A stretch of 63,412 nucleotides of DNA, counting the filler, from Sluysia triapertura (taxonomy: Eukaryota), in assembly GCA_046118255.1 (NCBI GenBank). It is 5 parts of 5 records of this genome, joined end to end, with 100 filler letters (N's around TTAATTAATTAA, not from the genome) between each part and the next. Parts side by side here need not be neighbours in the genome. Positions count along the whole stretch, not along the records: positions 27,236 to 39,366 come from JBJNIA010136284.1; 4 more parts are not named here. One strand, given 5' to 3'. This document shows, one piece after another, positions 38,195 through 39,043 of this stretch (position 1 is the stretch's first letter; each line of letters opens with the position of its first letter). Both the position numbers and the translations under genes were made by a program. Under the pieces are notes generated by a model. The model was not told the origin of the DNA. It did not search any database and saw nothing but the letters and a program-made list of their open reading frames with translations.

Positions 38195-39043
38195 CTCAAG
38201 AAACTTATAAGGATAATTACGACAAAAAGGTGAAAGCACACAATTTTGAAATGGGAGATAAGGTATTAGTGGATTATCCAATAGCAAAAGCAAGATATTC
38301 CAAAATTACATAAACCATTCAAGGCACCGTATGAAGTAATGAAAACAACGTCTACTAATTTATATATTAAAAAACCAAATGATATAACTGCTGAAACTTT
38401 TGTAGTACATGTAAATCGATGCAAGTTAGCGCCAAAAGAAGGATACAATCTAGGAAATATAAAAGTTACAAAGAATATATTAAAAGTAAAAGCGAGAACT
38501 ATAGATAGAGATAAACCACCTCCACCGTATGTAGACCTACAAACTAAGAAATCATCAGAAAGTGAAATAAAAACGATAACTTCTTCTTTCAATTTACAAA
38601 GACATTTAATACAAAGTGTAAAATTTAATCAAAGATGGATGAGAGCAGTCGTAGATAATGATTTTAATAATACAGTAATAAATTATTATATGTTAAATGC
38701 TTTGGAAGTAGTTATGATTCAAGACGTTGGATTAAGATTATTTCCAGTAGATGAATCAATTATAAGATTTAATGGAATGTTACAATGCCAGTTAACTATC
38801 TTAGATATGGGTGTATTTATACCATTAGTAGTTTGGGATGTTTGCTCCTATGAAATAATAACAGGTATGGATGTTATAAGTAAATTAGAAAATATTGTCA
38901 TTCGTGGTAGATTAAGATTTCTAAAGATGCCAACAAATGCACAAATATCTTTACCAAAAATCATATTATCACCAACATTAAATTATCCGCCAAGACCACC
39001 TACATCAATTCCAAAACTGCAACAACTTGTATTGGTAGGATAG
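38195..39043 (+). pseudogene. Integrase C-terminal GPY/F tail fused to a PPPPY linker and a second retropepsin-like domain
   Basis: YDKKVKAHNFEMGDKVLV, KLHKPFKAPYEV and VVHVNRCK across frames; RNase H and integrase core are deleted; then VKFNQRWMRAVVDND..TVIN ... EIITGMDVISKL. Confidence 0.75.

Follow-up and report, generated by a model that had tools for sequence, protein, structure and literature searches.

A family of gag-env-pol Ty3/gypsy-like elements in the genome of Sluysia triapertura almost certainly carries, as a fixed domain, a second retropepsin (protease 2), which follows the integrase tail and precedes a cassette of membrane modules. To our knowledge, LTR retroelements and retroviruses have been described with one aspartic protease, and the literature we searched held no retroelement with two retropepsins; figures and Repbase may still show one. 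We favour the reading that protease 2 would act as a second, active protease for the membrane-protein cassette of the element, and assign it a probability of about 0.55. All family counts, trees and alignments given below come from this one genome.

Layout of the element and its family

The window is a stretch of 63,412 nucleotides, composed of five parts of this genome joined end to end, and its positions 27236-39366 (contig G000:C136284) hold the domain together with the remains of the element to which it belongs. This window copy belongs to an abundant Ty3/gypsy family of gag-env-pol type but has decayed and lost internal sequence; all of its features lie on the plus strand. It begins with a 5' leader and a putative gag start that are common to other copies (32094-32762); the gag part (32458-32762) is named for its position and gave no Pfam match. 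The putative gag is interrupted by an unrelated insert (32762-33960), in which a fragment near 33355-33537 resembles a LINE tail. Then follow a tentatively Bcl-2-like region (34004-34407; Pfam Bcl-2 E = 0.003, below the cut-off, and PDB profile E = 0.0037, with 58 of the 60 weak matches listed belonging to the Bcl-2 family), fragments of Env, a gB/mononegavirus-type fusion glycoprotein (34463-36366; PF24664, E = 3.7e-6), protease 1 in the canonical position, decayed here, catalytic triad included (36450-36790), an unnamed domain (36800-37060), and reverse transcriptase (RT) with the start of RNase H, interrupted by stops and frameshifts (37400-38186; RVT_1, E = 1.2e-4). Most of RNase H and the entire integrase core are missing across a deletion junction near 38186, and residues ~717-1187 of the 1,661-residue frame of copy L128, described below, find no match in the window copy. 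The integrase C-terminal tail with its GPY/F module (38186-38440; Integrase_p58_C, E = 0.067) leads through a linker containing PPPPY (38516-38530) to protease 2 (38564-38945), in which DND occupies 38654-38662. Downstream lie a Pro/Ser-rich linker (38946-39172), whose frame is broken near 39043 here and open in other copies, and a signal-like hydrophobic stretch with the start of membrane module 1 (39173-39366), truncated by the contig end.

A sequence-only reading of this stretch had already placed a retropepsin-like domain, PPPPY and DND in an intact ORF of 234 residues behind the integrase tail, and its coordinates and motifs hold. The ATG at 38339, from which that ORF was counted to the stop at 39043, is, however, not a true start, since it sits within the integrase GPY/F module, the motif of which is at 38324-38332; from stop to stop, the frame spans 38285-39043, or 252 residues.

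Abutting the element leader is a separate multi-copy unit of ~565 bases (31530-32093) with internal short repeats and a CA end, and no other match spans both this unit and the leader. An LTR search detected no 5'/3' repeat pair in these short contigs; as the LTRs are undefined, we class the element as gypsy-like with the layout of Burro, rather than as a member of Burro. The next stretch of the window contains what we take to be hAT/Buster-type transposase fragments (41288-42986, minus strand) and a 319-residue open frame (44196-45155, plus strand) with a C-x8-C-x5-C-x3-H-like motif near its end.

In a first search of the genome, 150 of 1,533 candidates were scored, and all of them matched. 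The set of distinct copies used below numbers 146, duplicates and matches below 55% to the nearest of seven exemplars having been dropped. In L128, a natural frame of 1,661 residues runs from the transmembrane end of Env through protease 1, the unnamed domain, RT, RNase H, integrase and protease 2 into the linker and a hydrophobic stretch. Pfam recognizes in this frame two gag-asp_proteas stretches, separated by RT, RNase H and rve, and PF24664 matches the env of L128 at E = 6.6e-21 and 1.6e-11. Frames are continuous from env into pol in L128, L140 and L142, and further single frames in L130 (983 residues) and L131 (940 residues) run from protease 2 through membrane modules, in L131 as far as module 3. 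The order in the family is env, protease 1, RT, RNase H, integrase, protease 2, linker and three modules flanked by hydrophobic stretches. It comprises the protease-RT-RNase H-integrase order with GPY/F tail that defines Ty3/gypsy elements, as well as a gB-type env (PF24664) 5' of protease 1, between pol and a gag that is labelled by position. A hydrophobic-Met/Leu motif, a pattern chosen post hoc, precedes protease 1, RT, integrase and protease 2 in four of its five occurrences in L128.

Among the 146 copies, the nearest landmark upstream of protease 2 is the GPY/F tail in 105, protease 1 in 12, the integrase core in 2, the unnamed domain in 2 and env in 1, with no landmark in 9 and too little sequence in 15. 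On the downstream side, module 1 follows in 77 copies and RT in none, while 33 show no landmark and 36 are too short. Trees of integrase-core and protease 2 DNA, built from 29 of 45 eligible copies with at most five per bin, recover the same subfamily clades, apart from one W2 copy that is misplaced in the integrase tree. The sequence-only reading had allowed for the flagged domain being the start of a separate nested element, an option that can be discarded for all practical purposes, because the integrase tail lies upstream, RT is found downstream in 0 of 146 copies, frames are open across the integrase-protease 2 junction and the trees are congruent. Cassette swapping between subfamilies, another option considered, is unsupported, as integrase and protease 2 trees agree. 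Searches for protein homologues outside this genome yielded none at E = 0.001 among 681, 4,059 and 7,992 scored candidates, from libraries poor in such eukaryotic proteins; one match, to a leucine-rich-repeat-like protein, was judged spurious.

Fold, catalytic residues and ancestry of protease 2

Taken alone, the window domain matches RVP_2 at E = 0.03, below the cut-off. Pfam gag-asp_proteas is matched by 26 of 27 aligned protease 2 copies (best E = 9e-9), the sole exception being the window copy, and a profile of 30 copies finds Ddi1 retropepsin structures in the PDB at E = 7e-6; ASPRV1 and Ty3 protease sequences in the PDB are likewise matched by protease 2 profiles. A structure model of the window copy on a 27-row alignment reached a pLDDT of only 36.7, whereas the L128 copy, when modelled on 110 rows (pLDDT 87.3, pTM 0.80), shows a single-lobe retropepsin fold, with Ddi1 RVP as best match in Foldseek (E = 3.5e-6) and EIAV protease as best match in VIA (Z 12.5, rmsd 2.9, 98 aligned residues). 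These 110 rows comprise 73 protease 2 copies and 37 canonical proteases; as the canonical rows bias the model towards the retropepsin fold, the profile matches obtained solely from protease 2 rows provide cleaner evidence. Together, Pfam, the fold of the L128 copy and the layout of the family bear out the second retropepsin that had been proposed from the window alone; the structure prediction suggested along with it speaks for a retropepsin in the L128 copy and is uninformative for the window copy.

Protease 2 has the fold, the D[TS]G triad and the later hydrophobic-Gly motif in common with Ddi1, ASPRV1, Ty3 and retroviral proteases. It differs from known retropepsins in being the second copy in one polyprotein and in its flap, and its identity to the structure matches is 10-24%.

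Of the 146 distinct copies, 142 are readable at the triad. D[TS]G is present in 114 of these and is the majority state in each of the seven bins; 28 depart from it, and Asp stands first in 132. A smaller count gave DTG in 51 of 63 copies. DND, whose conservation had been put forward as a point to check, occurs in the window copy alone, where protease 1 is also without its triad, and represents decay of this one copy. Pairwise dN/dS among 77 stop-free protease 2 copies has medians of 0.09-0.31 for pairs of at least 40% identity, and of 0.48-0.50 for pairs below 40%, where dS saturates; the corresponding medians for protease 1 (50 copies) are 0.07-0.25. Protease 2 is thus under purifying selection like protease 1. 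In the window's own subfamily its pN/pS is 0.51, as expected with more decay. Given one DND among 142 readable copies, the prevalence of D[TS]G and of a leading Asp, and purifying selection, the earlier description of the domain as possibly inactive does not extend to the family, in which protease 2 is probably catalytically active.

The four main protease 2 groups are 33-49% identical to one another and ~26% identical to protease 1. In a protein tree of 50 rows, from which 9 of 59 non-redundant rows had been dropped as truncated or decayed, protease 2 and protease 1 each form a group of their own (91/95 and 99/88, respectively). The best tree joins protease 2 to the protease of a sister env family (93/72), and a grouping of protease 1 with protease 2 is not rejected (p-AU = 0.27); an old duplication and a capture from a relative would both be compatible with this result, and the duplication proposed from the window alone is neither shown nor rejected by the tree. 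Short contigs with ordinary gypsy gag-pol frames (L223-L226, L228), which we take to resemble fish sushi-type elements, served as outgroups only and are possibly foreign DNA. The best match of a PF13975 search, L196:1353-2210 (minus strand), is likely the host Ddi1 gene.

Membrane modules and the proposed role of protease 2

Three tandem modules, each consisting of signal, ectodomain and transmembrane segment, lie 3' of protease 2 in L131:161-2980, L130:3-2951, L034 and L048. They gave no family match; in Atlas, a CUB-like assignment leads for module 3 at no more than 0.80, and modules 1 and 2 have no usable match. The profile of module 3, like that of the domain between protease 1 and RT, found no match in the PDB. 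Accessory ORFs are located downstream of the polyprotein (L144:1208-1690 and L144:118-1083, both on the minus strand, and also in L131, L132, L035, L036 and L330); in L144, one of them encodes a RING finger (Pfam E = 5.7e-8) followed by a basic tail, and another, conserved ORF is without a match.

For the sister env family, 22 loci were surveyed, of which 7 extend past the GPY/F tail, 3 belong to the main family and 12 end short of the tail or gave no match. In all 7 that extend past it (L292, L293, L294, L300, L305, L307 and L308), a signal-like stretch comes immediately after the tail and leads into a membrane module, and a second protease is absent; the ectodomain of this module may be fibronectin type III-like. 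An anchored integrase therefore does not need protease 2. Conversely, 12 of 28 bin D copies fuse protease 1 directly to protease 2 at a common junction (L324, L325, L055, L074, L076, L081, L082, L084, L235 and others), which is in frame in 6 of the 12 and, in a separate inspection, in L235. Of these derivatives, L324 and L325 keep the Bcl-2-like region, env and the three modules, and are without RT, RNase H and integrase. Among the derivative copies, pN/pS is 0.30 for protease 2 (pS 0.29) and 0.37 for protease 1 (pS near 0.3), values that recombination with full-length copies could have lowered; the two proteases are under similar selection. Across the family, identity to L128 is 34-53% for protease 2, 34-50% for module 1 and 56-90% for integrase. 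From its absence in the sister family, its retention in the derivative and its module 1-like pace of change we infer that protease 2 works with the cassette, although we put a role tied to the cassette rather than to the integrase at even odds.

How such an enzyme might operate is suggested by the topology predicted from hydropathy, in a scan that left the internal signal peptides of modules 2 and 3 undetected. The Pol block would form a cytosolic loop, anchored at one end by the Env transmembrane segment and at the other by the signal anchor; cleavage by the signal peptidase of the host would yield three type I membrane proteins. As in other gypsy elements, the maturation of Pol would fall to protease 1. 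Protease 2 would be separated from the integrase by a cut at its own N-terminal site, remain close to the membrane and process cytosolic junctions in the cassette or in Env. Flavivirus proteases, which trim the capsid anchor, provide an analogue for cuts beside signal anchors.

Protease 2 could also be active and serve Pol, either by freeing the integrase in cis from its C-terminal membrane anchor or by backing up protease 1. Its position exactly between integrase and signal anchor and its co-inheritance with the integrase would suit this role, but the sister family places a membrane module next to its integrase without a second protease in 7 of 7 loci, and the derivative without integrase keeps protease 2 at a pN/pS of 0.30, so that we consider a service to Pol unlikely. 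We judge it less probable still that protease 2 serves as a scaffold or pseudo-enzyme, perhaps by dimerising or by tuning protease 1, as the structural or regulatory module proposed from the window alone would have it. Several features would fit such a loss of catalysis: protease 2 evolves about twice as fast as protease 1, the D, T and G columns rank 11, 19 and 19 of 119 in conservation, meaning that the triad is not the most conserved part, and the alignment shows that the flap-position glycine of protease 1 is absent in several protease 2 subfamilies, which could reflect changed specificity or lost activity. Nevertheless, D[TS]G has remained the majority state in every bin despite only 33-49% identity between the groups, and DND is confined to 1 of 142 copies.

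Equally improbable is that protease 2 has an accessory function directed against proteins of the host, which would accord with the Bcl-2-like domain and the RING ORF of the family. Fast divergence with a retained triad, best profile matches to cellular Ddi1 retropepsins and the presence of the RING ORF downstream are in line with it; in the tree, however, protease 2 groups with element proteases and away from the genome's Ddi1, a partial sequence on a long branch, and no host substrate is indicated by any of our analyses.

Lower again in our estimation is the reading that the PPPPY at 38516, labelled a late-domain motif from the window alone, actually functions as such in budding. The motif is an exact PPxY on the predicted cytosolic side of an element that has an env, and it is rare by chance: in 20,000 shuffles of the 234-residue frame, PPxY appeared in 3.0% and PPPPY in 0.015%. 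A PPxY late domain is by definition located in Gag or the matrix protein, yet this one lies in the linker that joins the integrase tail to protease 2. Moreover, a PPxY in this linker is found in 10 of 132 covered copies, all belonging to the window's subfamily (10 of 17) and none to the six other bins (0 of 115); the suggested check of its conservation thus argues against a family trait, and the 10 of 17 are compatible with plain inheritance plus decay. A different PPxY, beyond the end of the contig that carries the window copy, in the predicted cytosolic tail of module 2, is better kept, with 20 of 47 covered copies (A 11/11, W1 6/8, C 3/4, W2 0/10, D 0/8, W3 0/5, E 0/1), and may be the better candidate for WW-domain binding in trafficking or budding.

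Starting from the favoured reading of protease 2 as a protease for the membrane cassette, one can conceive of a broader division of labour, which we regard as rather unlikely: one retropepsin would mature Gag-Pol and the other, tethered to the membrane, would time the maturation of the envelope and surface cassette, while a long-lived helper lineage without RT and integrase would keep Env, the tandem proteases, possibly as a single-chain, pepsin-like two-lobed enzyme, and the cassette.

Relation to known elements and implications

Burro/GYPSM1, the giant gypsy elements of planarians, have a similar layout, with one polyprotein comprising a BCL2-like domain, which has a tentative counterpart in our family, and, as here, env in frame before pol, protease, an extra domain, RT, RNase H and integrase, and with an env that matches mononegavirus fusion proteins, as does the env of our family (PMC6431247). 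They differ in their BIR, ankyrin, MATH, SUMO-like, Smc and AIR1 motifs and, in the accessible part of that description, in having one protease, whereas the family studied here has a second retropepsin and three membrane modules after the integrase (PMC6431247). In our own searches, no BIR, ankyrin, MATH or SUMO-like domain was found in 7 long frames and 8 pieces, which cover the gag-to-Bcl-2 stretch in part; env is in frame with pol in the three copies named above. The unnamed domain between protease 1 and RT tentatively corresponds, by position, to the dUTPase-like domain of Burro, and gave no dUTPase match in profile searches.

Errantiviruses with GAG-ENV-POL order and a gB-type env are known from Platyhelminthes, Nematoda and Bryozoa, and share with our family the position of env before pol; by eye, without alignment, the env of our family resembles the Platyhelminthes_C1a rows (PMC13524379). 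In the available text of that paper, 'protease' appears a single time, within the standard layout, and a second one is not mentioned (PMC13524379). In Ginger1, a protease is located C-terminal to a gypsy-type GPY/F integrase, as is protease 2; the Ginger1 enzymes are, however, cysteine proteases of the OTU or Ulp1 kind and belong to DNA transposons that lack RT, whereas protease 2 is an aspartic retropepsin and the second one in its retroelement (PMC2836005, as far as the accessible text goes). The bdelloid elements Juno, Vesta and TelKA carry extra ORFs after pol, some of them for small transmembrane proteins, and a dUTPase between protease and RT; according to the portion of the source at hand, the extras of bdelloid LTR elements are separate ORF3s beside a single protease, while here they form part of the polyprotein (PMC5408684).

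Having retained two retropepsins over a deep radiation, the family can serve as a natural test of how substrates are divided between them after duplication or capture, and of how an element with its env inside the polyprotein solves its membrane topology. For annotation, the layout implies that protease matches after the integrase in such genomes should not be taken as nested insertions. The tandem fusion of protease 1 to protease 2 in a derivative under selection bears on a long-standing proposal for the origin of two-lobed pepsins, namely the fusion of retropepsin-like monomers.
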